Positions 8,351 to 59,395 of a stretch of DNA of 64,000 nt are shown here, piece after piece (position 1 is the first letter of the stretch; each line of letters begins with the position of its first letter). Below the pieces are notes generated by a model. The model saw only the letters and a list, made by a program, of their open reading frames with translations. It was not told the DNA's origin and did not search any database. The DNA is from an uncultured Halobacteriales archaeon (lineage in GTDB: Archaea; Halobacteriota; Halobacteria; Halobacteriales; SKSH01): contig CAZCYF010000002.1 of NCBI GenBank assembly GCA_964502835.1, positions 41,478 through 105,477 of the forward strand, read 5' to 3'. The translations under genes and the position numbers were made by a program.

Positions 8351-8397
8351 CCTGCTACGCCCTATGCCAGTGCGTTCCAAAAACGTTCCGTCGGTCC

Positions 8398-9648: not shown

Positions 9649-9695
9649 CGCGTCATGCCACGTTCTCCCGACCCAACTTTCCTTCGGTCGGTGGC

Positions 9696-31157: not shown

Positions 31158-32960
31158 TCAGACGTGCTCGTCCAGGAAATCCGCGATCGCCGTGTACGCC
31201 TCGACCCGATTCTCGAGCTTGGTGAACCCATGGCCCTCGTCCTCGAAGAGCAGTTTTCGGACCGGCACACCTTGCGCCCTGGCCGCCGCGGCGATCTGGT
31301 CGGCCTCCCCCACGGGCACGCGAGGGTCGTTGGCGCCGTGAAGGACGAACAGCGGCGCTTCGATGGCCTCGATCGTGTTCGTGGGGCTGATCGATTCGAG
31401 AAACGCCCGATCGTCCTCCAGGCTGCCGTACTCCGCCTCGCGGAGGGATCGGCGCCACTCACCAGTGTTCTCGAGAAAGGTCACGAAGTTGGCGATACCG
31501 ACGATGTCGATCCCGGCGGCCCATCGATCCGGGTAGGCCGTCAACGCCGCGAGCACCATGAAGCCGCCGTAGGAGCCGCCCATCGCGGCGATCCGGTCGG
31601 CATCGATCGCGTCATGCGCGGCGAGCCAGTCGTGGCCCGCGGCCACGTCCGCAACCGCGTCCATTCGGTGCTCCACGTCATCCAAGTGCGTATACGCCCG
31701 ACCGTAGCCGGCCGACCCGCGCACGTTCGGCTCGAAGATCGCATAGCCACGCTCCAGAAGGTACTGCTGGACGGCCATGAAGGTGGGTCGGCGTTGGCTC
31801 TCGGGTCCACCGTGAACGTCGACGATCGCCGGTACCCCCTCGGCATTCTCGGCGTCGGGCACCGTGAACAGGGCCGGGATCTCACGGCCGTCGAAGGTCT
31901 CAAAGCGAATCAGGTCCGGCTCACGAAAGCTGTCCCGGGGAATACCCGCCGTCGATGCCGCCGTGTACCGGCGTGTCTCACCCGTCTCGACCTCGACCAC
32001 GTAGACGTTCGGGTTCATGGTGCGACTCTGTGCGGTGACCGCAAACCGCTCGCCGCCGGGGAAGAAGTCGACGCCACCAGCCACTCCGTTGGGAAGGTCC
32101 GGGCCCGGATGATCACGCAACGTGCCGTCATCACCGATGGTCGTCACGGTCAACTCGGTGTACCCCTCGACGTTTCGCGAGTAGACCAACCGGCGGTTGT
32201 CCTCGTCGACGGCGACCCCGTCCACGTTCCACTCGCCGCCGGCTCGCACCGTCTCCATCGTGTCGTCGTCCAGGTCCAGCCGAGCCAGCCACAGCGTGTC
32301 AGCACCCTCGTCCGTGACAAGGTAGAGACCGTCACCGGCTGGCGACCACTCCGGGCTCACATAGCGGGTTTCCTCCGGGTGATGGGTGACCCGTCGCAGC
32401 CCACCCGACGCGACGTCGAGGACGTGGAGCTCGTGGTCGAAGCTCGAGCCGGCCTCGTGAACGAGGAGTCGGTCGCCGTCGGGACTCCATCCCGCGACCG
32501 AGAGCCAGCCGTCACCGTCGTGAATCAGCTCGGCCGCCGACCCAGTCGCGTCACGTCCCTGGACGTACACGTCGAACACGGCCGTGTCACGGCGATTTGA
32601 CGTGAAGGCGAATCGGTTACCCTCGGGGCTCCACCCACCCCACCGATGCTTTGCGGATGGAGTTGCCGTCAGCGATACGATCCGTCCGGAATCGACGTCG
32701 AGGCGGAACAGCTGGACCCGCTCGTTGCCGCCCTCGTCCATCCCGAAGACGATCTCGGGCCGACGTGGCGACCACGAGGCGAAGGTGACCCGTTCGTCGA
32801 AGAAGGTTCGCTGGGTCGGCCACGCACCCGGGGCGTCGACCGTCCACAGCTGTGGGACCCCCGTCGTATCCATGAGGAACGCGAGCCGTTCTCCCTCGGG
32901 GCCGACGCTTGCGCCATACGCACGTCGGATGTTGAGGTAGCGTTCGATCGGATGGGCCAT
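31158..32960 (-). CDS. S9 family serine peptidase (prolyl oligopeptidase / acylaminoacyl-peptidase type)
   Basis: N-terminal beta-propeller repeats (WSPDG-like), then an alpha/beta hydrolase domain with GGSYGG nucleophile elbow and a later HG motif. Confidence 0.85.
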
Positions 32961-33135
32961 GGTCAGGCCATTCGCCACCACGCTAAATCGGTTCGGACTG
33001 TCGACGTCCGCACTCCCGGCTGCGGAGACCGGCGGGTCGTGCGCCTTGATCAATCTGGACGAGCCAACGGCGACGGGTATCCCACCGAGCGGCGACGAAC
33101 GACTCGATGACCGAGATCGAACGGAGAACGGGACG

Positions 33136-33210
33136 TGGGTTTGGGCAGATTTGAACTGCCGATCTCCTCCATGTCAAGGAGGTGTCCTAACCAGACTAGA
33201 CCACAAACCC
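33136..33210 (-). tRNA. tRNA-Val(GAC)
   Basis: Hand fold: acceptor GGGTTTG/CAAACCC, D stem GTCT/GGAC, anticodon stem CCTCC/GGAGG, loop TTGACAT, T arm GGCAG-TTCAAAT-CTGCC, discriminator A. Confidence 0.9.
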
Positions 33211-33223
33211 TGGTGCGGCACTC

Positions 33224-33556
33224 TCACGGTCGGTCCGGATCGGATTTGAACGTTTCGGGACCTGCCGGATCGGTCGTCGACAGCGAGTTGCCGGCCGCCA
33301 TGTCGGAGTGCAACCGGCTGTCGGTCCACCGCCGTTCGTGTGCCACGATGATTGGAGCGAGGTCGCCGAAGACGATGCCGAGGGCCAGATGCCCCACGAA
33401 GCGCATCCAGCACCGGGTGAGAACGGGACGATCGCCCCGAAGACGCGGTGCCGGCGATGATACCGACAGCGGTGCCAGCGGCCCACCGTCGCGGATCGAT
33501 TCCACGGTCGGCTCGCCCCAACGGTGAGTGGCCTCTGGGTGCACGCCAGAGTCCAC
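33224..33556 (-). CDS. hypothetical protein (weak call)
   Basis: Only frame in this gap without off-frame Arg/Pro bias, and mostly G/C at third positions. GTG at 33556 sits ~23 nt from a minus-strand TATA (TTATAC = plus 33576-33581). One hydrophobic helix (FVGHLALGIVFGDLAPIIVA). No recognisable family. Confidence 0.25.
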   Translation of the reverse strand: MDSGVHPEATHRWGEPTVESIRDGGPLAPLSVSSPAPRLRGDRPVLTRCWMRFVGHLALGIVFGDLAPIIVAHERRWTDSRLHSDMAAGNSLSTTDPAGPETFKSDPDRP

Positions 33557-33570
33557 CGACCGTGTCCCCG

Positions 33571-33600
33571 TGTTTGTATAAGAATGATGACTATAAGGGT
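33571..33600. promoter_or_regulatory. AT-rich divergent promoter block with two TATA-like elements
   Basis: TGTTTGTATAAGAATGATGACTATAAGGGT. TTATAC serves the minus strand and CTATAA the plus strand. It is the only AT-rich element upstream of nrdJ. Confidence 0.4.
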
Positions 33601-33922
33601 GGCCGAATGATGCTCCGGTCCCGTTTCCCCCTGCAGCTCGAATCACCATTACTTTCGGCGGGACCAGCCGGTGAAATCCTCGCCGTTCCCGTCCCGGTCC
33701 GACGGTGGCACCGCGTGACGGGCGACATCACTTTCACTGCGGATGATGTACCATTAAGCCCCTGCCAACCATTCGCCGTCTCAGCCACCGTCGGGGCCCT
33801 TTGGGGCATCGCGCGGGTATCGGACGCGACAACGCAACAGCCGTGAGGGCCGGGCTTTCGCGGTCCGATGGGGTGCGAGCCGAAGGTGCCGCCGACGCGC
33901 GACCAACCACGAGCATGCAACC

Positions 33923-36900
33923 ATGAGTGACGCCAACCCAACCGCCGACGACACCACCTTGCCGATCAAGCGCACGACGGGAGACACCCTCGAGGAGCGC
34001 CTGAGTGCCAACGCCTATCACAACATCCTGCCGGCCAGATACCTGCAAAAGGACGCCGATGGCACCCACGTCGAGGACCAGGAGGAGCTGTTCGACCGGG
34101 TGGCGAAGAACGTCGCGCTCGCCGAGGCCGTCTACGAGGCGCGTCGCCGCGGAATCGAGGTGACCGTGACGCCCGACCAGCTCAAGCCGAATCACCCGCG
34201 TCGCGACGAGCTGGCCGCCGAGGTCTTCGGACCGGGCACGAGCACTGATGACGACGTCGAGACGGCGCTGACGGAGGCCAACGTCAACAAGTTCGCCTAC
34301 GACACCGTCGTCCCGGAGCTGCCGACGGCGGTGCGTGACCACGTTACGTCGGTTGCAAACGAGTTCCAACAGCTGATGGAGGACCTTTCGTTTATCCCCA
34401 ATTCACCGACCCTTATGAACGCTGGTGGAGAATTACAGCAACTCAGTGCGTGTTTCGTTATGTCGCCTGACGATGATATCTCCGATATTCACGAAACCGC
34501 CAAGAAAGCGGCCGAAGTCTTTCAGAGTGGCGGCGGCGTCGGATATGGATTCTGGAAATTACGGCCATATGGTGATTCTGTCGGTTCGACAGGTGGGATC
34601 GCTTCCGGACCGATTACATTTATGCGCACCTATGATCAGCTCTGCGAAACGATCGCCCAAGGCGGCACCCGACGGGGCGCCCAGATGGCGATCATGCGTG
34701 TCTCCCACCCGGACGTCATCGAGTTCATCCACGCGAAGAACAAGGACGTCTCGCTGGCACACTCGCTGAAGCTCAACGACCCCGACGACCCGAAGTACAC
34801 GAGCTTCTCCGAGGCGCTCGACGAGGCGCGCGAGCTCATTGACGAGGAGGGTCGCGTCCCCGAGCACCTTCGCAACGCCGTCGAGGGCCACCTCTCGAAC
34901 TTCAACATCTCCGTCGGCGTCACCGACGGCTTCATGGAAGCACTCGAACGCGGCGAGAACTACACGTTCACGAACCCTCGAACCGGCGAGGCCCACGTCG
35001 CCACGCCAGAGACGAAGGAGATGTACTCCCGGTACGGCCTCGGCGAGCACGTCACCGTCGGCGAGGCGCTCTCCCTGCCCGCCGAGCTCATCTGGGAGCG
35101 CATCATCGAGGGCGCCCACGAGAACGGCGAACCCGGCGTAGTCTTTCTCGAGCGGGTCAACAAGGAGCACTCCTTCGACGTCGAGGAGCATCCGGATCAC
35201 CGGATTTTGGCGACGAATCCGTGCGTGACTGGGGACACGCTCATCAGTACCGATCGGGGCCTCATTCCTGCTGAAGACCTCTACAAACAGGGTGTTGCCA
35301 CTGACGTGGTCGTGGACGGACGGCTCAGCAATGACTCGATCAAAGAGGCTAGCAGCGTCTACAAAACCGGCGAGAAAGATGTCTACAAACTCAAGACGGA
35401 AGAAGGATACGAGCTTCGACTTACCGCGGACCATCGCGTCATGACCGACGACGGCTGGGTCGAGGCACAGGACCTTGAGGCCGACGACACCGTCCACATC
35501 CTCAACCGAAAAGGCGGATTCGGACAGCACGGAACTGCCGAAGAAGGTCGGGTACTCGGATGGCTCGTCGGCGACGGCCATCTCAAGCACGGCGAAGAAC
35601 GCGCCGTCTTGAACTTTTACGACGATGACGCCGAAATCTCCGAGGCACTCGCCGAAGACGTCAACGAGATCGTTCGCGAACCACTCGGTAACGGGAACTA
35701 CAAGATCGGCGTCAGCGAGATCGGTCGAGACGATGCCTACCGCGGTACACTGGCGATAGAACAACGAATTCGATCGACACGTCTGTACGAATACGCCGAA
35801 GAAGTCGGGCTCGCAGAGAACAAACTGCAGGTACCCAATGCGGTGATGCGGGGTAGTGAGGAAATAGCCCGGGGTTTCCTGCAGGCGCTGTTCACCGCTG
35901 ACGGATGCGTTCAAGGTAGCGTCGAAAAGGGCATTTCGGTCCGACTCTCGAGTTCCGAACTCTCCCTGATAAAAGACGTTCAGAAGTTGCTGCTCAACTT
36001 CGGTATTGCGAGCAAGATCTATCACAACCGCCGTGAGGCGGGGAAGCGAGAACTGCCGGACGGCAATGGTGGGACAAAATCGTACGAGACGAAACCCCAG
36101 CACGACCTCGCGGTTACGAGTAGCCACGTCGTCACTTTCGAGGAAGAAATCGGGTTTATTCTCGAACGCAAAAACGAAGAACTCGCGGCGAAGCTCGATG
36201 AATACAACCGTGGTCCGTATCTCGGCCGCTTCGAAGCGACCGTCGAGTCAGTCGAAGAAGACGGTCACGAGGACGTCTTCGACCTGACCGAACCGGACAC
36301 GCACTCGTTCATCGCGAACGGATTAGTCGTCCACAACTGCGGCGAGCAACCGTTAGAGGAGTACGAAGCCTGCAACCTCGGCCACATCAACCTCTCCACC
36401 ATCGCCGCCGAAGAGGCCCCCGACTGGCGCGTCTGGAGCGAACGTCACGGTGATGCGTATCCATCGCAGGAGGCGGCCATCGAGGCGTTCCTCGAGGAGT
36501 CGATCAACTGGGAGGACTTCGACGATCGCATCGAACTGTCCACGCGCTTCCTCGAGAACGTCGTCACGATGTCGGACTTCCCGGTCGAGGAGATCGAGGA
36601 GACCGTCCGCGAGATGCGCAAGATCGGCCTCGGCATCATGGGCCTCGCCCAGCTGTACATCCAGCTCGGGATGAAATACGGGAGCGACGCCTCCAACGAG
36701 GTCGCCCGTCAGCTGATGGTCCACATCAACCACGGATCGAAGTGGGCCTCCCACGAGCTCGCCGAGGAGCGCGGTACGTTCGACGACTGGGCCGACTCGA
36801 AGTACGCCGACCCCGTCCGGTACCGCGCGTGGTTCGAGCACCAGACGGGCCTCGACGCGGACGAGTGGGCCGACGGCTTTCCGATCAGGAACCACAATAC

Positions 36901-38143
36901 GACGACCATCGCGCCGACCGGGACGACCGGCATGGTCGGGAATACGACCGGTGGCTGCGAACCAATCTACAACGTCGCCTACTACAAGAACGTCTCCGAC
37001 GACGTCCAAGGCGAGGAGATGCTCGTGGAGTTCGACGACTACTTCCTGCGGGTGCTGGAGGCCAACGACATCGACGTCGAGGCCGTCCAGGCCGAGGCCG
37101 TCGAGCAGATGCAAGACAACGCGTTCGCCGGCATCGATGGGCTGGAGACGGTGCCCGATGCCATCGGCGAGTTGTTCGTGACGACCTCCGACCTGGGCGC
37201 GCTCGAGCACGCCGCGGTGCAGACCGCCTGTCAGGAGGGCGTCGACTCGGCCATTTCGAAGACCGTCAACGCCCCCAACGACGCGACGATCGACGACACT
37301 CGCGAGGCCTTCGAGTTCGTCTACGACCACGGCGGTAAGGGCGTCACCTACTACCGCGACGGCACCCGCTCGAAGCAGGTCCTGACCACGCGCGCGGACA
37401 ACGCCGACTTCGCGGCCATGGATGAGGAGGTCGCCGCCGAGACGCTCGTCGAGGCGATCGAGGACGTCTTCGGCGGCCTCGAGGGCTTCCTCGAGGAGGC
37501 GTCCGTCCGGGAGGCCCTCGGGGACGAGCTCGCGGCGATCGCCGGCCGTCCGCTGGGCGAACGCGGCTACGTCCAGAAGAAACCCCGCCCCGACCAGCTC
37601 ACCGGGGTCACACAGCGCATCGAGACCGGGTATGGCAAGCTCTACGTGACGATCAACGAGGACCCCGAGACGGGTGAGCCGTTCGAGCTGTTCGCCAACA
37701 CCGGCCACAGCGGCGGCTTCACGAACGCCTTCACCGACGCGCTCGCGAAGACGATCTCGATCGCGCTGCGCTCGCAGGTCGACCCCTACGAGATCGTCGA
37801 CAAGCTCCAGGGCATCCGCTCGCCGAAGGTCGCGTGGGACAAGGGCGAACAGATCAATTCGATCCCGGACGCCTTCGGGACGGCACTGCGGCGCTACCTC
37901 GACGACGAGATCGATCTGGCCTATCCCCAACAGCGCCAGCTCCACGAGCTCGAGCGCGTCGAGGAGGAGGCGATGGCCGGCGAAACGGAACCGGACGGCG
38001 GCACCGCGACGGTGACCCGCGATGACAGCGCCGAACTCATCGCTGCCGGGGAGAGCCCGGAGTGTCCCGAGTGTGGCTCGGCGACGCTGTATTACGCGGA
38101 GGGCTGCAAGACCTGTGACAGCTGTGGCTGGTCGGAGTGCTGA
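33923..38143 (+). CDS. nrdJ: class II (adenosylcobalamin-dependent) ribonucleotide reductase, intein-containing
   Basis: 1406-aa ORF. The catalytic TNP/CGEQPL motif is split by an intein. Other conserved extein blocks are present (NSPTLMNAG, SACFV, GGGVGYGF). C-terminal tail has CPECG...CKTCDSCG. Confidence 0.9.
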   Translation: MSDANPTADDTTLPIKRTTGDTLEERLSANAYHNILPARYLQKDADGTHVEDQEELFDRVAKNVALAEAVYEARRRGIEVTVTPDQLKPNHPRRDELAAEVFGPGTSTDDDVETALTEANVNKFAYDTVVPELPTAVRDHVTSVANEFQQLMEDLSFIPNSPTLMNAGGELQQLSACFVMSPDDDISDIHETAKKAAEVFQSGGGVGYGFWKLRPYGDSVGSTGGIASGPITFMRTYDQLCETIAQGGTRRGAQMAIMRVSHPDVIEFIHAKNKDVSLAHSLKLNDPDDPKYTSFSEALDEARELIDEEGRVPEHLRNAVEGHLSNFNISVGVTDGFMEALERGENYTFTNPRTGEAHVATPETKEMYSRYGLGEHVTVGEALSLPAELIWERIIEGAHENGEPGVVFLERVNKEHSFDVEEHPDHRILATNPCVTGDTLISTDRGLIPAEDLYKQGVATDVVVDGRLSNDSIKEASSVYKTGEKDVYKLKTEEGYELRLTADHRVMTDDGWVEAQDLEADDTVHILNRKGGFGQHGTAEEGRVLGWLVGDGHLKHGEERAVLNFYDDDAEISEALAEDVNEIVREPLGNGNYKIGVSEIGRDDAYRGTLAIEQRIRSTRLYEYAEEVGLAENKLQVPNAVMRGSEEIARGFLQALFTADGCVQGSVEKGISVRLSSSELSLIKDVQKLLLNFGIASKIYHNRREAGKRELPDGNGGTKSYETKPQHDLAVTSSHVVTFEEEIGFILERKNEELAAKLDEYNRGPYLGRFEATVESVEEDGHEDVFDLTEPDTHSFIANGLVVHNCGEQPLEEYEACNLGHINLSTIAAEEAPDWRVWSERHGDAYPSQEAAIEAFLEESINWEDFDDRIELSTRFLENVVTMSDFPVEEIEETVREMRKIGLGIMGLAQLYIQLGMKYGSDASNEVARQLMVHINHGSKWASHELAEERGTFDDWADSKYADPVRYRAWFEHQTGLDADEWADGFPIRNHNTTTIAPTGTTGMVGNTTGGCEPIYNVAYYKNVSDDVQGEEMLVEFDDYFLRVLEANDIDVEAVQAEAVEQMQDNAFAGIDGLETVPDAIGELFVTTSDLGALEHAAVQTACQEGVDSAISKTVNAPNDATIDDTREAFEFVYDHGGKGVTYYRDGTRSKQVLTTRADNADFAAMDEEVAAETLVEAIEDVFGGLEGFLEEASVREALGDELAAIAGRPLGERGYVQKKPRPDQLTGVTQRIETGYGKLYVTINEDPETGEPFELFANTGHSGGFTNAFTDALAKTISIALRSQVDPYEIVDKLQGIRSPKVAWDKGEQINSIPDAFGTALRRYLDDEIDLAYPQQRQLHELERVEEEAMAGETEPDGGTATVTRDDSAELIAAGESPECPECGSATLYYAEGCKTCDSCGWSEC
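35222..36337 (+). mobile_element. intein with LAGLIDADG homing endonuclease domain inside nrdJ
   Basis: 372 codons. Block A CVTGDTLIS, block B LTADHRVMT, LAGLIDADG motifs LGWLVGDGHL and FLQALFTADGCV, terminal VVHN followed by +1 Cys (CGEQPL). More A/T-ending codons than the host gene. Confidence 0.85.
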
Positions 38144-38258: not shown

Positions 38259-38618
38259 ATGGACGAAGACGCCCTCGAGGAGGCTCTTGCCGTCCTCGAG
38301 GCGATCGCGCCCCACGAGCCAAGCGTCGCCGACGCCGTCGACGCCCTCGAGGCCGTCGTCGACGAGCCGGCCGCCATCCGAACGGCGCTTGAACACGCCG
38401 AGGACGAGGGGATCATCGAACGCGAGAACCGTCGTCTTCAGGCACCCCGCGGGGCCGTGAACCGAGACCGGCGGGGGGCCATCGTGACGAAGGACGGTGA
38501 GTTTTCCTGTCGGCGGTGTGGTCGCTCCCTGTCGACGGGGTTTTTCCTGCGGATCGACGGTACGGAGGTGGGTCCGTACGGTTCCACGTGTATCGAGAAG
38601 GTGACCGGGCGGGCGTGA
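38259..38618 (+). CDS. conserved hypothetical acidic protein with C-terminal Cys cluster
   Basis: 119 aa, MDEDALEEALAVLEAI...FSCRRCGRSL...GSTCIEKV. Good third-position G/C bias. Confidence 0.6.
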   Translation: MDEDALEEALAVLEAIAPHEPSVADAVDALEAVVDEPAAIRTALEHAEDEGIIERENRRLQAPRGAVNRDRRGAIVTKDGEFSCRRCGRSLSTGFFLRIDGTEVGPYGSTCIEKVTGRA

Positions 38619-48442: not shown

Positions 48443-49339
48443 CTACTCATCGGAGGACGTGGAGCCGAGGCGCTCTTCCAGCAACTCGATCAAGAGTTCG
48501 TGCCGGTCGAGGCGTTCCTCGTGGCGTTGAATCGTCGCGCGGAGATCGGCTAGATCGGCGTCATCCTCCGGCGACGAGCGTTCGACACGGCTCTCACCGG
48601 GTGCATCCGAGTCGGCGTGGCTGCCGGTCGTCGACGTCGGTCGGAGCGGCTCGAACCCCTCCATCAAGGTGCTCGTCGAGGCGTCCGAATCGGCAGCTGG
48701 TGCCGGGCTTGGTTGGCCGAGGTCATCGATCGAGTCAACCCCGTGATGACGACAGATCGTCCCCTCCAGGTCGTCAACGAGAGCGGTCGCTTCCGACCGT
48801 GGCACCTTGATGCGCTCGGTACCTTCGTTGGTTACGAGGACGACCTGGGTCGCGACGGCGCCTGACTCGGTCGTGAGGTCGTGGATGGCCGCTAACGGAA
48901 TGTCGTCGGCGTCCGGCCCCCACACGTCCGTTCCGACGTGTTTGAACAGGTGGCGGTCGGTGACGACCACGGTCAACTCGTCGAACCGATCCACCCGGAT
49001 GACGGCCTCATCCGGTTCGATACGCGCGTGATGGCGAAGGATCCGCTCGAGGACGGCCGCGAGCACCGGTCCGAGGTGTCCGGAAGGGATCGCCAGCGTC
49101 CGTCGATCGCCATCTCGGGGCTCGAAGACGAGGTGTACGCCCCGGCGACCCCGATCGACGGCCAGCGTTTCGACCCGATGGTCGACCGATTCCACGCGCT
49201 CATCCCGGATGAGTCGACCCGCTCGATGGACGATGGTGCGCGTTTCCGTCGTATACAGCGTCGCGTCCTCGCCGAGGGAGATCCGATCAATGACGGACTC
49301 GGTGCCGAGGATGGTCTCGACGCGCCTCGGGAGGCTCAT
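48443..49339 (-). CDS. hypothetical protein, tandem beta-rich modules plus acidic coiled-coil tail
   Basis: Inner ATG 49339, with TATA (GCTTTATGC) centred roughly 27-31 nt upstream. Two similar ~90-aa modules, a Ser/Asp-rich linker, and a C-terminal heptad region (LADLRATIQRHEERLDRHELLIELLEERL). Confidence 0.6.
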   Translation of the reverse strand: MSLPRRVETILGTESVIDRISLGEDATLYTTETRTIVHRAGRLIRDERVESVDHRVETLAVDRGRRGVHLVFEPRDGDRRTLAIPSGHLGPVLAAVLERILRHHARIEPDEAVIRVDRFDELTVVVTDRHLFKHVGTDVWGPDADDIPLAAIHDLTTESGAVATQVVLVTNEGTERIKVPRSEATALVDDLEGTICRHHGVDSIDDLGQPSPAPAADSDASTSTLMEGFEPLRPTSTTGSHADSDAPGESRVERSSPEDDADLADLRATIQRHEERLDRHELLIELLEERLGSTSSDE

Positions 49340-49705
49340 GCGCGGTGAGTTGATGAAGGCAGAGCATAAAGCCCGCGACCGGATGGAAGGCTTTTTGGCT
49401 GGATTCGGCCTACTCGCTCTCGCGCCCGGGTGGCTTAGCTGGACATAGCGCCGCACTCATAGGGTCACCAGACTCGGCGCGTCGGTCCAGGCCCTGCCGT
49501 CGGGGCTGTGACCTGGGCCATGCGGAGATCGAGGGTTCGGAGCCCTCCCCGGGCATAAGCCGCGTCGGTCAGGCGTGTTTATTGACGCTCGACCGGCCGA
49601 TGCCCTCGGGACGGTAGTCGACGTGGGGCTGGTAGAATCGATGGGGGAGAGCCAGGTCAAAATACAACACGGCCGAGAAGCGGTTCACCCCAGCGTCCAG
49701 ATTAG

Positions 49706-50610: not shown

Positions 50611-51009
50611 TCAATCGTACACCTCCTCGGGGTCGAACCGGCGGTCGCCCTCGGTCACCAGCTCCCCATCGACGATGCGGCGATGGAAACAGCTGCGATG
50701 TCCGGTGTGACAGGCCGGCCCTGCCTCGACCTCGAGTAACAGTGCATCACCGTCACAATCCACCCACACCTCCTTGAGGTGCTGTTCGTGGCCCGAGGTC
50801 GCCCCCTTGCGCCAGAGCGCATCCCTGCTTCGACTCCAGTAATGGACGGTGCCGCTTTCGAGCGTGCGACGGACGGCGGTCTCGTTCATGAACGCGGTCA
50901 TCAAGATCGTGCCGTCATCGACATCGCGGGTAATCGCCGTGACGAGACCCCGGTCCGAAAAGTCGAGGGCGTCGAGAATCGTGTCGACGGCTGGCTCAGC
51001 CAGCTTCAT
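50611..51009 (-). CDS. hisI: phosphoribosyl-AMP cyclohydrolase
   Basis: WSRSR..LW.KG.TSGH and [20 protein letters not shown] motifs. Confidence 0.9.
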
Positions 51010-51298
51010 GCCGGCGCCTCCGTTGGAGTTCGGCCGTCACGTCCTCGAGGTCGAGGTCGTGGGCGGCCAGGAGGACGAGCACGTGAAACACCACGTCGGC
51101 CGCCTCATGAACGACCGCGTCGGCCGGCTCGTCCCGGCTTGCGTCGAGGAGCTCCTCGGATTCCTCGGCGACCTTGGCTCGGACCGCCGCCGGGCCCTCG
51201 GCAAGCAACCTCGAGACGTACGATTCCTCGAGTGGGTCGTCCCGGCGGGATTCGATCACGGCCATCAACTCCGCGAGATAGTCGAGGTCGTCAGTCAT
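50996..51298 (-). CDS. hisE: phosphoribosyl-ATP pyrophosphatase
   Basis: 100 aa: SYVSRLL..G...KV.EE.EEL...E.AD..FH.LVLL. Inner ATG of track ORF 50996..51535. Overlaps hisI by 14 nt. Confidence 0.85.
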
Positions 51299-52583
51299 CA
51301 CGACCCTCCCGGCGGACGCGAACCGCCGCCGCGTGACCCGGCAATCCCTCGAGGTCCGCCATCGTCTCGATCGTATCGGCGAGGTGCTCGAGGCCGGCGG
51401 TCGACACCCGCTGGACCGTGGGAGTGCGCACGAACTCGAAGACCGAGATGCCACTGCGTCGCCGAGCGGCCCCGGCGGTGGGGAGTACGTGGCTCGGGCC
51501 GATGGCGTAATCGCCGGCCGCGGCCGAGGTGGCATGCCCGAGAAACACGGTGCCGACGGCGTCGATCCGATCGAGATGGTCGTCGGCGTCGTCCACCATC
51601 ACCTGGAGATGCTCCGGCGCATACGCATTGACGTACTCGAACGCGGCCGCCAGCGAGGGGGCGACGAGAAAACCGCCGTGGCGGTCAAGCGCCGTCTCGA
51701 CGGTGTCGGTGCGCTCGAACGATTCGAGGGCGTGTTCGACCTCCCGACGGACGGCCTCGGCCAGGGACCGGTCGGGCGTCACGAGGATCGAGGCGCAATC
51801 GGGGTCGTGTTCGGACTGGGCGATGAGATCCCACGCCACGTGTGCGGGATCGGCGGTCGCATCAGCAACCACGATGAGCTCCGTCGGTCCGGCCAGCACG
51901 TCGATGTCGACGTCGGTCATCACGGCGCGCTTGGCGGCGGTCACGTAGACGTTTCCGGGGCCGACCACCTTGTCAACGGCGGGGATGCGTTCGGTGCCAT
52001 AGGCCATCGCGGCGACGGCCTGGGCCCCGCCGACGGTGAACAGGTCGTCGACGCCGGCCACCTCGGCGGCGAATCGAGTGGCGGGATCGACGGTCCCATC
52101 CACATCGGGCGGCGTACAGACGACGATCCGGTCGACGCCGGCAACGGCCGCCGGAATGGCGGTCATGAGGACGCTCGAGGGGTACCTGGCCGCTCCACCT
52201 GGCGCATAGCATCCGACGGTCGAGAGGGGGCGGATGAGGGTGCCCGCCTCGACCCCCGGTTCGAACGCCTGGATCCAGGAGTCGGGGCGTTGCCGTCGGT
52301 GGAATCGATCGATCGCCTCGGCGGCCGACCGGATCGCCCCCACAGCCTCGTCGGAGAGCGCCTCCTCGGCCGCCGCGCGCTGTGAGTCCGGCACCCGGAG
52401 GGCCTCGAGGTCCACCTCGTCGAATCGACGCGTGTACTCGAACACCGCGTCATCACCCCGCGACCTGACCGCGGTGACGATATCCTCGACGTCGTCTTGT
52501 ACCCGTTCCAGGTCCGTCCCTGAGCGCTCGATGAGTCCATCGCCGGCGGAATCCAGCGGCTCAACGGATGGGATCGTCGTCAT
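51291..52583 (-). CDS. hisD: histidinol dehydrogenase
   Basis: GCYAPGG.A.YPSSVLM, QSEHDP and GDY..GP.HVLPT motifs. Inner ATG 52583 (MTTIPSVEPL...). Confidence 0.9.
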   Translation of the reverse strand: MTTIPSVEPLDSAGDGLIERSGTDLERVQDDVEDIVTAVRSRGDDAVFEYTRRFDEVDLEALRVPDSQRAAAEEALSDEAVGAIRSAAEAIDRFHRRQRPDSWIQAFEPGVEAGTLIRPLSTVGCYAPGGAARYPSSVLMTAIPAAVAGVDRIVVCTPPDVDGTVDPATRFAAEVAGVDDLFTVGGAQAVAAMAYGTERIPAVDKVVGPGNVYVTAAKRAVMTDVDIDVLAGPTELIVVADATADPAHVAWDLIAQSEHDPDCASILVTPDRSLAEAVRREVEHALESFERTDTVETALDRHGGFLVAPSLAAAFEYVNAYAPEHLQVMVDDADDHLDRIDAVGTVFLGHATSAAAGDYAIGPSHVLPTAGAARRRSGISVFEFVRTPTVQRVSTAGLEHLADTIETMADLEGLPGHAAAVRVRREGRDD

Positions 52584-52608
52584 GGGCTCACCCCCTGGAC
52601 CGCGTCGG

Positions 52609-53361
52609 TCATAACCGGACCGGGACCCCCTGTTGATCCAGATATCGCTTGACCTCGCCGATCGAGAAGGTGTCGAAATGGAAGACGCTCGCCGCGAGGG
52701 CGGCGTCCGCCTCACCCGCGGTGAGCACCTCCGCGAAGTGCTCGAGCGACCCGGCGCCGCCCGAGGCGATGATGGGGACGTCGACGACGCCGGCCAGACG
52801 GCGCGTGCCCTCGACGTCGTACCCCGCCTTCGTCCCGTCGGTGTGAATGCCGGTATACAACACCTCGCCCGCTCCGTGGGCCACCGCCGTCTGGGCCCAC
52901 TCCAACAGGCGGTGGTCGGTGCGGTGGCGGCCGCCACCCGTGTAGACGATCCACTCATCGCCCTGACGATCGGCGTCGATCGCACAGACGACCGCCTGGC
53001 GCCCGTAACTCGCGGCGATATCCTCGAGGACCGTCGGATCCTCGACGGCGGCCGTGTTCACCGACACCTTGTCCGCCCCGGCCTCAAAGGCCGCCGTCGC
53101 GTCCTCGAGGCCGCGGATGCCGCCGCCGACGGTCAACGGAATCGAGATGCGCCTGGCGATCCGTTCGACGGTCGCAAGGAAGGTGTCACGGCCGGCCGGC
53201 GTGGCGGCGATGTCCAGGTAGACGAGTTCGTCCGCGCCCTCGCGGTCGTACCGTTCGGCGACCTCGACGGGATCGCCGACCTCGCGGAGATCCTCGAAGT
53301 TGACCCCCTTGACCAAGGTCCCCGTATCCGCATCCATGCAGGGGACGATCCGTTTGATCAC
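52609..53361 (-). CDS. hisF: imidazole glycerol phosphate synthase, cyclase subunit
   Basis: [25 protein letters not shown] and ASGGAG motifs. GTG start in a GTGA overlap with hisB. Confidence 0.9.
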
Positions 53362-53930
53362 TCCACGACCCCCTTCGAGCTCGGGACGTCCTCACCCACG
53401 ACCGCCACGGCCATCGCAAGGGCGGCACCGATCCCCTTGGCGGTCGCCTCGGCCTTGTGGTGATCGTTGGTCCCCCGCAGGACGTCCACGTGCAGGTTGC
53501 AGGTGGCGTTGCTGGCGAACGTCTCGAGCAAATGGGCGTACAAGTCGGTGCGCATGTCCTCGAGGTACTCCGTGTCGAAGGTGATGTCAACGTCGACGTA
53601 CGGCCGGCCGCTGAGGTCGATCGCGACCAACACGAGGGCATCGTCCATCGGGAAGATCGCGTGTCCAGCCCGTCTGATGCCACGCTTGTCGCCAAGCGCC
53701 TCGGTGAGGGCGCTCCCGAGGGCGATCATCGCATCCTCGGCGACGTGGTGATCGAAATCCCCACGGGCGGCCACCTCCACGTCGAACCGTGCGTGCGTGG
53801 CCATCGCCGCCAGCATGTGGTCGAAAAAGGCGATGCCGGTATCGACGTCGACGTGGCCATCGCCCTCGAGGTCGAGCGCCACGGTGACGGTCGTCTCACC
53901 CGTCGCTCGCTCGATGGTGGCAGATCTCAC
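53358..53930 (-). CDS. hisB: imidazoleglycerol-phosphate dehydratase (monofunctional)
   Basis: TGI.FFDHML, D.HH..ED and G.N.HH..EA..K motifs. No fused HAD phosphatase domain. GTG start overlaps the hisA stop. Confidence 0.9.
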   Translation of the reverse strand: MRSATIERATGETTVTVALDLEGDGHVDVDTGIAFFDHMLAAMATHARFDVEVAARGDFDHHVAEDAMIALGSALTEALGDKRGIRRAGHAIFPMDDALVLVAIDLSGRPYVDVDITFDTEYLEDMRTDLYAHLLETFASNATCNLHVDVLRGTNDHHKAEATAKGIGAALAMAVAVVGEDVPSSKGVVE

Positions 53931-54637
53931 GGTGTCAGCTCCATTGCTGCCCGAAGCGAGAACCTTCCCGCATATAAGGCCGTGCCGACGACGAGGCCGG
54001 CCGCGCCGGCGGCCTGCGCGGCGGTGACGTCGTCGAGGCTGGCGACCCCTCCACTGGCGTACACGGGCACCGAGACGGTCGAGGTGAGACGCTCGATTGG
54101 CATGGGGTCGATCCCGTCCAGTTGGCCCTCCCGCTCGACGTTCGTAAACAGGATGCCGCCGACGTCGTGGCGGTCGAAATGGTGTGCCACCTCGAGGAGG
54201 TCCGCGTCGACGCTCCCCGACCAGCCCTCGACCGCGAGGCCGCCGTCGACCGTTTCGAGCGCGACGAGCACGGACCGTCGGTCCACCGCATCGAGGATGC
54301 CACGTACGACCGCTGGTTCGGTGACCGCGGCCGTCCCGAGGATGACGCGATCGGCACCGGCGGCGAGCAGCGAACGGACGTCCTCGAGCGACCGGAGCCC
54401 GCCGCCGACCTGGATGGGCACCTCGGCTGCGGCGAGCAGCCGTTCGATGACCTGGCGGTTGTCACCCCGGTGCATGGCGGCATCGAGGTCGACCACGTGC
54501 ACCCGCGACGCGCCGGCGGACTGCCAGCGCTCGAGAGCATCGATCGGATCGCCGTAGTCCTGGGCGGTGTCCGGCCGGCCCGCGACCAGTTGCACACACC
54601 GCCCGTCACGGACGTCGATGGCGGGGATGACCTCCAT
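53927..54637 (-). CDS. hisA: ProFAR isomerase
   Basis: VIPAIDVRDGRCVQL, VVDLDAA, QVGGGLR and ASGGV motifs. Confidence 0.9.
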   Translation of the reverse strand: MEVIPAIDVRDGRCVQLVAGRPDTAQDYGDPIDALERWQSAGASRVHVVDLDAAMHRGDNRQVIERLLAAAEVPIQVGGGLRSLEDVRSLLAAGADRVILGTAAVTEPAVVRGILDAVDRRSVLVALETVDGGLAVEGWSGSVDADLLEVAHHFDRHDVGGILFTNVEREGQLDGIDPMPIERLTSTVSVPVYASGGVASLDDVTAAQAAGAAGLVVGTALYAGRFSLRAAMELTP

Positions 54638-54640
54638 CGG

Positions 54641-55501
54641 TCAATAGACCAGCCGTTCGATGGGCAAGACGAGGATGTCCTGCCCGCCCGCGTCCTTCGC
54701 CTCGGTGATCAGCTCATAGACCTCGTCTTCGTTCACGACCACCTGAATGGCGACCATGTCGGTCCCCTCGACTCGCGAGACGGTCGGGCCGGCCATGCCG
54801 GGCATCACGTCGCGAACCGCATCGAGGTGATCCTCCGGGACGTTCATGAGCAAGAGCTTGCGGGTCTTCGCCTGGATGACGCTCTCGATGGCGAGGCGGA
54901 GGGACTCGATGCGGTCGGGGTGGGCCTCGAGACTGTCCCGGTTGGCGACGAGGCGCACCGACGTCTCGAAGATCGATGCGATCACGTCGAGATTGTGCGT
55001 GCGCAGCGTCGTCCCGGTGGACCGGATGTCGACGATGAGGTCGGCTACGCCCAGGAGCGGCGTGATCTCCGTCGCGCCTGAAACCTCGACCAGGTTGACC
55101 TCGACTCCGCGATCGGCGAAGAACTCGTACGAAACGTTCGGGAATTCGGTGGCCACGGTCAGGCCGTCATCGACGTCACCGAGGTGGTCGATCGGGGAGT
55201 GTTCGGGCGTGGCCACCACCATCTCGGCGTTGCCGAAGCCGAGGTCGAGCAGCTCCTCGACGGTGGCACCAGATTCCCGAATCAGGTCGTAGCCGGTAAT
55301 CCCGAGGTCGATCGCGCCCATCTCGACCATGTTCGGGATGTCCGCCGTTCGAACGAACACCAGCTCCAGATCGTCCAGATCGGTCGGCGCGAACAGCTGT
55401 CGATCCCCCTCGTCGATGGGACCCGCTCCGGCGTCGTCGAGGAGTCCGATCGCCGGCTCATGGAGGCGGCCCTTGTTCGGTACCGCGAGGCGCAGCGTCA
55501 T
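54641..55501 (-). CDS. hisG: ATP phosphoribosyltransferase, long form
   Basis: LAVPNKGRL, DLGITG.D and STGTTL motifs, plus a C-terminal regulatory domain. No hisZ is needed. Confidence 0.9.
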   Translation of the reverse strand: MTLRLAVPNKGRLHEPAIGLLDDAGAGPIDEGDRQLFAPTDLDDLELVFVRTADIPNMVEMGAIDLGITGYDLIRESGATVEELLDLGFGNAEMVVATPEHSPIDHLGDVDDGLTVATEFPNVSYEFFADRGVEVNLVEVSGATEITPLLGVADLIVDIRSTGTTLRTHNLDVIASIFETSVRLVANRDSLEAHPDRIESLRLAIESVIQAKTRKLLLMNVPEDHLDAVRDVMPGMAGPTVSRVEGTDMVAIQVVVNEDEVYELITEAKDAGGQDILVLPIERLVY

Positions 55502-56574
55502 CGGTCGCTATCGAGCACGTGGGAGAGGGTGGTAATCAACCGACCGTTCTCCGACGGCGTGCCGACCGTGATCCGGACCCACGACCCATCGAGACCTCGA
55601 AATCCCGAGACGTCTCGGATCAGGACGTCCTCCCCGGCGAGCGCCGACACCAGGGCCGGTCCATCGAGATCATGGGTGGCTGTCGATGCCAACAGGAAGT
55701 TGGCCGACGAGGGGACCACCTCGAACCCGAGGTCATCCAACGCGGACCGGAGCCGCTCGCGCTCCGTGTCGATCATGCTCCGTGTCCGCTCGGCGAAGCC
55801 GTCGTCGTGGATGGCGGCGAGGGCGGCCGCCTGTGCCGGTCGGTTGACGCTGTAGGGTGACCGGACCACGCCGAGGGTGTCGATGCGGTCGGGCGACGCG
55901 ATCGCGTACCCGATCCGGAGGCCGGCGAGGCCGTAGAACTTCGAAAACGTGCGGGTAATGATGAGGTTGTCGTACGTGTCGACCCAGTTCACGAGCGAAT
56001 CTCCCTCGAACTCGACGTAGGCCTCGTCGAGGACCACCGTCGTCTCCGTCTCGAGGATGGCGTGCAGCTGATCGCGGTCGATGGCCCGCCCCGTCGGGTT
56101 ATTCGGCCGGCAGATGAACGCCCCCGACGCCTCGGAACATGCCGCCACGAGCTCCGGTTGTGGCGCCGCAAATCGCGGGGGCTCGAGATCGAAGAACAGC
56201 GGCGTCAGCCCGTTCAATCGGGCCGCGAGTTCGTAGACGCCGAACGTCGGCGTCGGGATGACCACCCGATCGCCGGGATCGAAGAAGGCGGTACCCACCA
56301 GATCGAGCAACTCATCGGAGCCATTGGCGAGACGGACCATCTCCGGCTCAAGGTCGAGGGTGGTGGCGATCGCCCGTCGCAGGGGATTGTCGACGGCCGG
56401 CGGATATCGTCCACACGACGGAGCCACCTCACGGATGGCCTCGACCGCCGAGTCCGGGGGGCCAAGCCGGTTTTCGTTGGCGTGCAGCCGGAGTGCATCC
56501 TGGGGTGTGGCCGTCTCCTCGAGCGGATACGCCGCCCCGGCTTCGAGGACGTCCTTGACTCGTTCGGAGATCAC
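55498..56574 (-). CDS. hisC: histidinol-phosphate aminotransferase
   Basis: L.ANEN..GPP, NPNNPTG-like (RPNNPTG), DEAY.EF and TFSK (PLP lysine). GTG start in a GTGA overlap with the PHP gene stop. Confidence 0.85.
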   Translation of the reverse strand: MISERVKDVLEAGAAYPLEETATPQDALRLHANENRLGPPDSAVEAIREVAPSCGRYPPAVDNPLRRAIATTLDLEPEMVRLANGSDELLDLVGTAFFDPGDRVVIPTPTFGVYELAARLNGLTPLFFDLEPPRFAAPQPELVAACSEASGAFICRPNNPTGRAIDRDQLHAILETETTVVLDEAYVEFEGDSLVNWVDTYDNLIITRTFSKFYGLAGLRIGYAIASPDRIDTLGVVRSPYSVNRPAQAAALAAIHDDGFAERTRSMIDTERERLRSALDDLGFEVVPSSANFLLASTATHDLDGPALVSALAGEDVLIRDVSGFRGLDGSWVRITVGTPSENGRLITTLSHVLDSDR

Positions 56575-57230
56575 GACACGGCCTCCACGAGCCGCTGGGG
56601 GGTCTCATCGAGCGCGGCGTCGACGCGGTCATCCGGCAAACCGGCCCCGGCAGCGATCGCCCGGGCCTCCGCATAGCCGATGAGATCCGACGGGTCGTGG
56701 GCGTCGGTGTTGACGACGAGCGCGGCATCGGCCCGCTCGGCCTCGCGTGCCACCCGGCCGTTGGTGAGGCAATGGCCACGCCGGGCGGTGAGTTCGAGGA
56801 CCGTCCCGGTCTCGGCGGCCCGGTCGGCCGCCGCCGGCGAGATCGGCCCGGGATGGGCGAGCAAGTCGACCGCGTCGGCCTCGATGGCAGCCCGGTTGGT
56901 GCCCGCCGCGACCGGTTCAACCAGCGTCTCGCCGTGGACGAGCACGAGGTCGGCCCCCTCGGCCTTGGCCCGGTCAGCCTCCGCCGCGATGAGCTCCGGG
57001 GGGAGATGCGTCAGCTCCACCCCAGGGACGATCCGGACCGGCTGTGCGCCGTTGAGCCGGGTCGCCGCGGCGACGCTTCGACCAACGACGTCAGCGACGT
57101 TCGATGGTCCGGCATGGTCGGCGATGCAGATCGCATCGATGCCCGCGTCGGCCGCCCGGCGAGCGAGTTCGGCCGGGAGCAACGCGCCGTCACTGGCGAA
57201 CGTGTGGGTGTGCAGGTCGATTCGGGTCAT
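56571..57230 (-). CDS. PHP-domain metal-dependent phosphoesterase; putative histidinol-phosphate phosphatase
   Basis: 219 aa. PHP ligand set DLHTHT, ADH, GVELTH, VHGE, LAHPG, NTDAHD. The functional call rests only on operon context, as the first gene of a translationally coupled his block. Confidence 0.7.
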   Translation of the reverse strand: MTRIDLHTHTFASDGALLPAELARRAADAGIDAICIADHAGPSNVADVVGRSVAAATRLNGAQPVRIVPGVELTHLPPELIAAEADRAKAEGADLVLVHGETLVEPVAAGTNRAAIEADAVDLLAHPGPISPAAADRAAETGTVLELTARRGHCLTNGRVAREAERADAALVVNTDAHDPSDLIGYAEARAIAAGAGLPDDRVDAALDETPQRLVEAVS

Positions 57231-57290
57231 GGCTGGCGACAGGTGAATCCGTATCTACCGCCACGCCGGGCGGCCATGTAAGCGCGCGGT

Positions 57291-57935
57291 TCACCCATTG
57301 TGGCGGTCCCGAGGGGTCGAAGCGCAAATCGAGACGAAATTGCGCAGGAGCTGTAATCCCACCTCGCCGCTCTTTTCGGGATGGAACTGGGTGCCGAACA
57401 CCGTGTCGTCCGTGGCAAGGACCGACCCGAAGGTGACGTCATACTCGGTCGTCGCGACGATCGTCGTCTCGTCGTCAGGGACGGGATAGTACGAGTGCAC
57501 GAAATAGGCGTGGCCGCGGTCGATGTCTGCCACCAGCGGGTGCTCGCGGACGACCTCGATCTCGTTCCATCCCATGTGGGGGACCTTCGCCTCCCCGTCG
57601 AACCGAACGCTCGTTCCGGGAATCAGGCCCAACCCCTCGGCATCGGGTGCCTCCTCGCTCGTCGAGAGGAGCAGTTGCAAGCCGAGACAGATCCCGAGGG
57701 TGGGCGTGCCCCCCTCGATCGCCGCCCGGAGCCCTGATCTGATCGGGGCGAGGTTGGCCACGCCCCGGCCGAACGCCCCGACGCCGGGCAGGACCAGGCC
57801 GTCGGCGGTCGCGAACGCCTCGGGAGAATCGCTCACCTCCGCGGCCGCTCCAGCCCGCTCAAGGGCACCCGTGACGCTCTTGAGGTTCCCGAGGCCGTAA
57901 TCCACCACGACGACCCGCGGGGTTGCATCCGTCAT
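57291..57935 (-). CDS. hisH: imidazole glycerol phosphate synthase, glutamine amidotransferase subunit
   Basis: VVVDYGLGNL.S, LPGVGAFG, GICLGLQLL (active Cys) and FHPEKS motifs. Inner ATG 57935. Confidence 0.9.
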   Translation of the reverse strand: MTDATPRVVVVDYGLGNLKSVTGALERAGAAAEVSDSPEAFATADGLVLPGVGAFGRGVANLAPIRSGLRAAIEGGTPTLGICLGLQLLLSTSEEAPDAEGLGLIPGTSVRFDGEAKVPHMGWNEIEVVREHPLVADIDRGHAYFVHSYYPVPDDETTIVATTEYDVTFGSVLATDDTVFGTQFHPEKSGEVGLQLLRNFVSICASTPRDRHNG

Positions 57936-58026: not shown

Positions 58027-58461
58027 ATGCATCCGGATCCCGCGGATACCGTCGACGACCTCGTCCACCCGGAGACGCAGGTCCATGACGGGGCGGTTGA
58101 CCTGACGGTGGCGGCCGTCCACGTCATCGACGAACCGGCGCACATCGACTTTGGCGGCAGCGAGCTTCAGTTGCCGGCGACGACGGCCATCGAGCCAACG
58201 AAGCGCCACCCGGACGACGAGTACGGGTGGTGGTCGCTCGATCCGGGCTTGTACCTGCTCGAGTACAACGAATCGCTGGCGGAGCCACCCGCGTTTTTAC
58301 AGCCCCGCGAGGCACTCATCGCCGGTGGCGCGATCCACCCGGCCGGCTGGGTCGATCGCCTCCCCGCCGTGGGGCTATTCGTCGGTGGCGGCCTCGAGTG
58401 TAAGGAGAACGCACGCGTCTCGACGATCTGGCCCGGCTCCTCGACCGAGGCGGAGCGCTAG
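58027..58461 (+). CDS. dUTPase / dCTP deaminase superfamily-like protein (tentative)
   Basis: 144-aa acidic ORF with beta-rich pattern and ..GWWSLDPGLYLLEYNE..ENARVSTIW, resembling dut/dcd-fold proteins. Motif match is weak. Confidence 0.4.
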   Translation: MHPDPADTVDDLVHPETQVHDGAVDLTVAAVHVIDEPAHIDFGGSELQLPATTAIEPTKRHPDDEYGWWSLDPGLYLLEYNESLAEPPAFLQPREALIAGGAIHPAGWVDRLPAVGLFVGGGLECKENARVSTIWPGSSTEAER

Positions 58462-58525: not shown

Positions 58526-59395
58526 ATGTACACCAGCGTGCTCGTCCCGACCTCGCTCACGCGGGAGACGGACGATCGGCGCGAGGCGACCCGCAAGCTG
58601 GGCTGGATCGCCCGCGCCGCCGCCATCTTCGGGGTGGACGACCTCGTCGTCTTCCCCGACCCCGAGGGGGTCAGTTCCGAGGGGGAACGGTTCGTCGCGG
58701 CGGTGTTGCGCTACGCAACCACACCGCCCTACCTCCGAAAGGAGGCCTTCGGGCGGCGCGACGAACTGGCGCACGTCGGGGTGCTGCCGCCGCTTCGCCA
58801 CCCGACATGGACCGGCTCCGAATCGAACGGTTCGGGGTCGACGCGAGAAGGAATCGTGACCGAGGTCGGACCTGATGGCCGCGTTCGGGTCAATTGCGGA
58901 CTGCAACACCCGATCTCCCTCGTCGTCTCGGGCGACGATCCGCCCGAGGTGGGAGAGCGCGTCGCCGTCAGCATCTCTTCGCGAGATCCGGTCCGGGCGA
59001 AGCTCCTCGACGAGGAGCCACCCGGGCCCCGCGTACGCGAGCAATCCCTGAAAGCGGCCCTCTCGGGCCGACAGAGGTGCATTCGCGTCGCGACCTCACG
59101 CCACGGCCACCCCCTCACCGTGGGGGGATTGTCCGGGGCGTTGGCCGACCGGCACGAGCGCGGCTTGACGGTCGCCTTCGGTGCCCCCGAACGGGGGCTC
59201 GTGCCGATTTGCCGGTCGATCGGGCTGGACGACCGGCCGCCGGACCGGCCCGACGCCGCCCTGGGGGACCTCGGACGGTCCACCGACGGCGGGTTCGACC
59301 TCTGGTTGAACACGATTCCTGCCCAAGCAAGCGAGGTCGTACGCACGGAGGAGGCGGTCGTCGCCTCCCTCGCGTGTCTCGGCCTCGAGGAGTAA
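58526..59395 (+). CDS. SPOUT-superfamily putative RNA methyltransferase (DUF171-like)
   Basis: Conserved position directly upstream of rpl3 in archaeal genomes. MYTSVLVPTSL...AAIFGVDDLVVF...LNTIP.Q.SEVVRTEEA is the typical pattern. Confidence 0.6.
   Translation: MYTSVLVPTSLTRETDDRREATRKLGWIARAAAIFGVDDLVVFPDPEGVSSEGERFVAAVLRYATTPPYLRKEAFGRRDELAHVGVLPPLRHPTWTGSESNGSGSTREGIVTEVGPDGRVRVNCGLQHPISLVVSGDDPPEVGERVAVSISSRDPVRAKLLDEEPPGPRVREQSLKAALSGRQRCIRVATSRHGHPLTVGGLSGALADRHERGLTVAFGAPERGLVPICRSIGLDDRPPDRPDAALGDLGRSTDGGFDLWLNTIPAQASEVVRTEEAVVASLACLGLEE

Follow-up and report, generated by a model that had tools for sequence, protein, structure and literature searches.

A compact PHP-superfamily protein in a haloarchaeal histidine operon as a candidate histidinol-phosphate phosphatase

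Which enzyme dephosphorylates histidinol phosphate in an archaeon whose histidine operon carries a gene for every other step of the pathway? We address this question for a 64,000-nucleotide stretch of DNA from an uncultured Halobacteriales archaeon (contig CAZCYF010000002.1, positions 41,478 to 105,477; hereafter the window), in which a gene for a 219-aa protein of the PHP superfamily lies between hisH and hisC. From genomic context and chemistry we infer that this gene probably encodes the pathway phosphatase for histidinol phosphate (HolPase, EC 3.1.3.15), which would be a distinct, minimal PHP type. We favor this reading because it completes the pathway, because genes of the same family appear to have been inserted repeatedly and independently into his operons beside those of the flanking enzymes, because the chemistry is apt, and because archaea offer a precedent.

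The HolPase step of histidine biosynthesis has been reinvented repeatedly, and one set of HolPases, the HisJ enzymes, already belongs to the PHP superfamily. In archaea the step is often missing from annotation. Two-thirds of the histidine-producing archaea in KEGG have no annotated HolPase (Kinateder et al. 2024; PMC10804674), and HisN was the step that GapMind most often called with low confidence, in 42 of 148 organisms, or 28% of the prototrophic test set (PMC7311316). Both sources support a first, sequence-only reading of this locus, which had called the step poorly assigned in many archaea. The HAD-type HolPases of T. onnurineus (HisN) and N. maritimus (nmHisN, Nmar_1556) are encoded within his clusters, Nmar_1556 between hisB and hisC (PMC10804674). 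They share with the window protein the proposed pathway role and the siting by hisC or hisB, but they are aspartyl-phosphate enzymes whose fold and mechanism are unrelated to the PHP trinuclear metal center.

The histidine operon and its missing step

The his genes form a ten-gene operon on the minus strand at 50611-57935, in the order hisH-PHP-hisC-G-A-B-F-D-E-I. They were identified with NCBIfam models, and some starts were refined from the gene calls in L001, an identical contig among our sampled loci (numbered L001 onward). The operon is tightly packed, with several 4-nt overlaps, and comprises the following features, in transcriptional order:

57291..57935, minus strand: hisH, which opens the operon and lies 60 nt upstream of the PHP gene (TIGR01855, 212 bits against 105; a 214-aa call in L001)
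56571..57230, minus strand: PHP-superfamily phosphoesterase of family NF004981/PRK06361, 219 aa, candidate HolPase (open reading frame, hidden Markov model match, structural model and ligand set)
56571..56574, minus strand: GTGA overlap of the hisC GTG start and the PHP-gene TGA stop, putative translational coupling (sequence)
55498..56574, minus strand: hisC, histidinol-phosphate aminotransferase, maker of the proposed substrate (TIGR01141, 311 bits against 276.6)
54641..55501, minus strand: hisG, long form with a C-terminal regulatory domain (TIGR00070 and TIGR03455)
53927..54637, minus strand: hisA (NF010112, 275 bits against 243)
53358..53930, minus strand: hisB, monofunctional imidazoleglycerol-phosphate dehydratase (IGPD) of 190 aa without a phosphatase domain (IGPD models)
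52609..53361, minus strand: hisF (TIGR00735, 318 bits against 294.6)
51291..52583, minus strand: hisD, histidinol dehydrogenase, user of the proposed product (TIGR00069, 512 bits; start as in the 430-aa call in L001)
50996..51298, minus strand: hisE (TIGR03188, 84 bits against 42.7; a 100-aa call in L001)
50611..51009, minus strand: hisI, which closes the operon (NF000768, 158 bits against 126)

HisB aligned to the bifunctional HisB model only over model residues 167-355, the dehydratase half. The his operon contains neither a HAD nor an IMPase gene, and a motif-I scan together with Pfam searches of the neighboring genes gave no open reading frame with HAD motif I in its coding frame anywhere in the window. 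Since HisB is a dehydratase only and the operon contains no other phosphatase, every histidine step is encoded except the HolPase. This agrees with the first reading, which had described HisB as monofunctional and lacking a HAD domain, in a cluster without a HisN-like gene; both the model matches and the length of 190 aa confirm it.

The PHP gene begins with ATG and its product has the N-terminus MTRIDLHTHTFASDG / MTRIDLHTHTFASDGALLPAELARRAADAG. At 56571-56574 the plus strand reads tcac, that is GTGA on the coding strand, so the TGA stop of the PHP gene shares bases with the GTG that starts hisC (358 aa). An independent gene caller set the identical 4-nt overlap on L001 and on L086, a 67%-identical relative. 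The gene has a GC content at third codon positions of 0.85, similar to that of its neighbors, and the match of its product to NCBIfam NF004981 (E = 4e-78) argues against a chance reading frame. A protein search returned 1984 homologues. The motifs DLHTHT, ADH, GVELTH, VHGE, LAHPG and NTDAHD were all found in the protein. The reading frame, the PHP ligand series and the GTGA junction, all put forward before from the letters of the DNA, were thus confirmed in the sequence and, for the ligands, by alignment to the PHP domain of Thermus thermophilus PolX (ttPolX).

Family and predicted metal site of the PHP protein

The Pfam PHP model (PF02811) matched the protein at 31.7 bits against a gathering threshold of 26.4. 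The NF004981/PRK06361 model matched with 261.6 bits (cutoff 117), with residues 3-216 aligned on model positions 1-214 of 217, and members of this family have the same length (~211-230 aa) and the same invariant residues as the window protein, with no structural difference. The window protein is an unambiguous full-length member of NF004981/PRK06361. NCBI names the family 'histidinol phosphate phosphatase domain-containing protein', a name that reflects the PHP domain only and not a demonstrated function. The idea of a distinct minimal PHP solution stands insofar as the branch is distinct from HisJ/HisK, but the family itself is already catalogued.

The HisJ/HisK, TrpH/YciV and YcdX profile sets, suggested earlier as the comparison to make, all scored below their cutoffs, unlike NF004981. 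The HisJ/HisK models TIGR01856 (16.4 bits against 90.2) and NF005596 (18.4 against 202) matched residues 3-41 only; these scores bear out the separation from HisJ/HisK that had been claimed. The TrpH/YciV-type models for RNase AM/RNM (NF047791, 40.8 bits against 375) and 3',5'-bisphosphate nucleotidase (NF041577, 36.6 against 400) covered residues 1-74, the HxH/SDG N-terminus. Membership of the YcdX-like group was rejected (NF006702/PRK09248, 39.8 bits against 264), as was an assignment to Rpp30, the RNase P protein component 3 (PF01876, 19 bits against 35; NF046111, 27.8 against 200), to which the likeness is one of fold only. Among PDB sequences, the N-terminal 70 residues were best matched by RNase AM (7ug9, 9etk) and the pAp phosphatase Cv1693 (2yb1), whereas full-length alignments were obtained only with the ttPolX PHP domain and YcdX. 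The TrpH/YciV-like character proposed from sequence therefore holds for the N-terminal ~70 residues and not for the full length, over which the PolX PHP domain and YcdX are nearest.

An AlphaFold (AF2) model built on a 13-sequence alignment predicts a distorted (beta/alpha)7 barrel of seven strand/helix units, with a predicted local distance difference test score (pLDDT) of 96.1 and a predicted template-modeling score (pTM) of 0.92. In Foldseek comparisons this model gave template-modeling (TM) scores of 0.75-0.79 with the ttPolX PHP domain, 0.72-0.74 with YcdX, 0.67-0.72 with archaeal Rpp30 (3wyz, 2czv, 1v77), 0.65 with the T. thermophilus HisJ HolPase (2yxo) and 0.50-0.52 with RNase AM and the TrpH/YciV type. 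Nakane et al. mutated nine PHP active-site positions in ttPolX: Q342, H344, D349, H374, E413, H440, H468, D529 and H531 (PMC2665239). In a profile alignment, H7, H9, D14, H39, E72, H99, H126, D176 and H178 of the window protein fall onto these nine positions. All nine putative trinuclear-metal ligands are thus present; they are 100% conserved in 165 homologues, and metal binding is predicted.

Within the superfamily, the PolX PHP domain aligns over residues 5-196 and YcdX over residues 4-202, with all nine ligand positions matched, but the window protein stands alone without a polymerase domain and the identity is only 20-24%. The HisJ/HisK enzymes (B. subtilis HisJ, L. lactis HPP 4gc3 and T. 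thermophilus 2yxo; TIGR01856, K04486) share with it the superfamily, the barrel, the trinuclear ligand pattern and the proposed reaction. At 219 aa, however, the window protein is ~45-65 residues shorter than their 263-284-aa chains, in line with the difference of about 50 residues noted from the sequence, and it is 18% identical to 2yxo and 12% to 3dcp, with only the N-terminal HxH region matching. If it is a HolPase, the PHP superfamily would have been recruited to this reaction separately from HisJ/HisK. The TrpH/YciV proteins (RNase AM, Cv1693; COG0613) have a very similar N-terminal motif, DLHxHTxxSDGxLxPxEL..RA...G...IAITDH, but the likeness ends after about residue 75, and the window protein is at least 70 residues shorter. 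It lacks the inserted domain of RNase AM and the bisphosphate nucleotidase, which are 275-293 aa long.

Genomic context across the family

To place the gene in a wider context we sampled 80 genome loci, 80 metagenome loci and selected close relatives, and searched each with the His proteins of the window. Fifteen loci were his-linked, in at least four arrangements, and in all of them hisB was monofunctional and the operon contained no other phosphatase. The first arrangement, [hisH]-PHP-hisC-hisG-hisA-hisB-(hisF)-hisD-hisE-hisI, was found in the window and in a Halobacteriales metagenome-assembled genome (MAG; L004), Hadarchaeota (L005), Hodarchaeaceae (L015), MSBL1 (L085), another archaeon (L084), the 67%-identical relative (L086) and L131. 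In Anaerolineae the order was hisG-PHP-hisD-hisC-hisB-hisH-hisA-hisF-hisI-hisE (L018, L029, L066 and, more loosely, L028). The third arrangement, hisG-A-B-F-D-E-H-I-PHP, occurred at L135 and L142, and the fourth, hisC-PHP with a 1-nt gap, at L100. The his-linked orthologues therefore span Halobacteriales MAGs, Hadarchaeota, MSBL1, Hodarchaeales, Anaerolineae and unassigned metagenome contigs, and the immediate neighbor is usually hisC, whose product makes histidinol phosphate, or hisD, whose product uses histidinol. By group, his linkage was distributed as follows:

Named archaeal loci: 6 of 8 his-linked, the exceptions being two Methanobacteriaceae
Anaerolineae loci: 4 of 10 his-linked
Other bacterial genome loci (about 65): none his-linked

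Away from his genes, the neighborhoods of the bacterial copies had no common functional theme; they were lineage-specific only (MiaB/BFN, TPR, CpXC, M42, phosphoribosyltransferase (PRTase), DapF and NAD genes). The PHP gene followed miaB in 27 of about 80 genome loci and a gene with a BFN nuclease domain in 14, mainly in Desulfobacterota. There a recurrent string consists of a MiaB-type radical-SAM methylthiotransferase, a 165-aa BFN-domain protein and, third, the PHP gene (L008 at 8000-10600, L010, L012, L019, L032 and L068). In Nitrospirota the PHP gene is followed by a gene for a ~250-aa TPR protein and then by a large convergent open reading frame, and a PRTase/ComF-like gene is also a neighbor. 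Other unlinked copies lie beside a CpXC protein gene (other Anaerolineae) or an M42 peptidase gene (Geopsychrobacteraceae). Two Desulfobacterota loci, L079 (10683-11735) and L031, carry a second PHP-like open reading frame of 350-381 aa (...HAHTRASDG...) directly downstream of the PRK06361 gene, making a tandem pair of different PHP families.

Homologues are 211-230 aa long, and the window archaeon shares 50-57% identity with Desulfobacterota, Nitrospirota or Anaerolineae. When 1.84 billion representatives clustered at 50% identity were searched exhaustively with a profile, only 205 clusters reached E <= 1e-30. With so few clusters and such identity across domains, the family is compact and slowly evolving. 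No fusion to a His enzyme was seen among these representatives; the longer ones have Clp_N or 3-dehydroquinate synthase segments, or no recognizable addition, and some are probably gene-call artifacts.

We assessed conservation in 165 full-length sequences from the genome and metagenome loci. About 50 positions were conserved at 95% or more, including the nine ligands and H75, E101, E105, T111, N112, R150, H153 and N157. The unlinked members, mostly Desulfobacterota and Nitrospirota, keep the same conserved residues, and no conserved position separated his-linked from unlinked members except the conservative E/D46; a specialized his subfamily was ruled out on this ground. A neighbor-joining tree tracked taxonomy, separating an archaeal and an Anaerolineae clade from the other bacteria, as expected of single-copy housekeeping orthologues. 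Within Anaerolineae, unlinked copies nested beside his-linked ones. Given this nesting and the lack of a distinguishing residue, the family looks isofunctional as judged from its sequences: either all members would be HolPases or none.

Proposed role, alternatives and host lineage

We infer the substrate, the identity of the metals and the roles of the pocket residues in the following scheme. A minimal (beta/alpha)7 PHP barrel would bind three divalent metals through H7, H9, D14, H39, E72, H99, H126, D176 and H178, and a metal-bridging hydroxide would attack the phosphate monoester of L-histidinol phosphate, which is made by the adjacently encoded HisC. L-histidinol would then be released to HisD. 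The family-invariant H75, E101, E105, T111, N112, R150, H153 and N157 may form the substrate pocket and bind the ammonium, imidazole and phosphate groups. The PHP gene would be co-transcribed and translationally coupled with hisC, so that synthesis of the phosphatase would keep pace with that of the enzyme supplying its substrate.

Several observations weigh against this scheme. About 150 of the 165 sampled members (~90%) have no his gene within 8-10 kb, among them all Desulfobacterota, all Nitrospirota and both Methanobacteriaceae. In Desulfobacterota the neighbors are the MiaB-type methylthiotransferase and the BFN-domain 'bifunctional nuclease', which hints at a role in RNA or nucleotide metabolism. 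Because the HisJ models do not recognize the protein, which is some 50 residues short of HisJ-type enzymes, the known elements for binding histidinol phosphate cannot be assumed. Cultured haloarchaea (Haloferax) have a HAD candidate, HVO_0431, whose disruption by a transposon leads to histidine auxotrophy (PMC8305020), and a second, HVO_0431-like HolPase could exist outside the window. In the searchable literature, with most subscription journals outside our reach, we found no publication that characterizes or explicitly predicts the function of NF004981/PRK06361. The sequence-only reading had itself counted against its candidate any routine location of orthologues away from his genes alongside a separate validated phosphatase; the first part describes about 150 of 165 orthologues, but no separate validated phosphatase was shown for those genomes. 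The claim that the gene is a candidate HolPase is credible, and it is strengthened by the orthologues found in his operons of several archaeal phyla and Anaerolineae in at least four gene orders, although ~90% of members are unlinked. Fifteen loci combine association with his genes and the absence of another HolPase from the cluster, against some 150 unlinked members.

These neighborhoods could instead mean that NF004981 is a general or nucleotide-directed PHP phosphoesterase, such as a 3',5'-bisphosphate nucleotidase, a 3'-phosphatase or a small RNase AM-like exonuclease, sited in his operons through hitch-hiking or moonlighting. We consider this unlikely. It would fit the best matches of the N-terminal 70 residues to RNase AM and Cv1693, the nearest full-length folds (the nuclease/3'-phosphatase PHP domain of PolX, and YcdX), the miaB and BFN genes that precede 27 and 14 of about 80 genome copies, and the 90% of members that are not his-linked. 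However, the RNase RNM (41 against 375) and bisphosphate phosphatase (37 against 400) models fail and reach the N-terminus only, and a protein of 219 aa instead of 275-293 aa has no room for the inserted domain of those enzymes, which is absent. The bacterial neighborhoods share no theme, and hitch-hiking leaves unexplained four independent insertions by hisC, hisD or hisI.

Linkage to a his operon does not by itself fix the substrate. The protein might act as another his-related repair or overflow phosphatase, on imidazole-glycerol phosphate, imidazole-acetol phosphate or 5-aminoimidazole-4-carboxamide ribonucleotide (AICAR/ZMP), while the true HolPase is a HAD enzyme encoded elsewhere; HAD-type candidates for Euryarchaeota exist in 'cluster II' (PMC10804674) and in HVO_0431 (PMC8305020). 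This seems to us quite improbable, since the pathway has no known step of this kind, whereas the operon lacks just one of the known steps. The adjacency is also specific to hisC and hisD, which flank the HolPase step, and the 64-kb window contains no HAD gene. A non-catalytic, Rpp30-like structural protein, for instance a paralogue of the RNase P subunit, is highly improbable despite the TM scores of 0.67-0.72 to archaeal Rpp30 and the weak RNase_P_p30 and NF046111 matches, as the latter lie below cutoffs (19 against 35 and 28 against 200), nine metal ligands invariant in 165 sequences argue for catalysis, and NF004981 is abundant in bacteria, in which we know of no Rpp30.

The window has a GC content of 66%. 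Its ribosomal protein uL3 is 82% identical to that of a Halobacteriales MAG and 65-69% identical to that of every cultured haloarchaeal genus listed, which places the window in a deep, uncultured haloarchaeal lineage. The his operon lies directly upstream of, and divergent from, a uL3-uL4-uL23-uL2 ribosomal protein cluster. Other non-his genes near it are unrelated to histidine synthesis (RNA methyltransferase, DUF7115, glyoxalase, Usp and others). Further features of the window are:

48446..49456, minus strand: open reading frame matching the uncharacterized DUF7115 (Pfam)
38259..38615, plus strand: open reading frame matching the uncharacterized DUF5830 (Pfam)
33135-33210, minus strand: tRNA-Val(GAC), normal

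Several side observations were made in the same DNA. An L4-Archaeoglobi ribosomal-protein leader (RF03135; Rfam, 72.9 bits against 34.5) was found at 58872-58971 on the plus strand, ~430 nt upstream of the uL3 start (59400) and inside a 289-aa open reading frame (58526-59395) that matches a putative RNA methyltransferase (PF02598); such overlap of a cis-regulatory leader with coding sequence is unusual. At 16540-16644 on the plus strand, Rfam reports a 105-nt tRNA (59.9 bits) that is absent from the ARAGORN output and is probably an intron-containing archaeal tRNA. Upstream of a 1406-aa open reading frame (33923-38143, plus strand), some 2.5 kb (31458-33923) hold no confidently called gene except tRNA-Val. 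Divergent from hisH, a 144-aa open reading frame at 58027-58461 on the plus strand has no Pfam match and occupies the same position in L001 (144 aa) and L086 (140 aa).

The his genes of cultured haloarchaea are described as dispersed; the intact ten-gene operon marks an unusual uncultured haloarchaeal lineage. Its gene order matches that of Hadarchaeota, MSBL1 and Hodarchaeales, suggesting that the operon was either retained from an ancestor by a deep haloarchaeal lineage or acquired horizontally. Finding a PHP protein encoded in a his operon makes it an obvious candidate, and the NCBI name already points that way; a long-standing gap now becomes testable by one enzyme assay. We give an even chance to the wider proposal that the whole NF004981/PRK06361 family is the long-missing HolPase of a large and mostly anaerobic set of prokaryotes, covering Hadarchaeota, MSBL1, the Asgard Hodarchaeales, Methanobacteria, the uncultured haloarchaeal lineage, Anaerolineae, Desulfobacterota, Nitrospirota, Omnitrophota and others. 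If the HolPase reading is true, this step would have been invented independently once more, for the second time within the PHP superfamily, by a family with a minimal 215-230-aa barrel without the HisJ insertions. The step would be resolved for several phyla, and false predictions of histidine auxotrophy would be corrected in the metabolic models of many uncultured archaea and anaerobic bacteria. A further gain would be a second, structurally minimal PHP solution for studying the evolution of substrate specificity on this scaffold.

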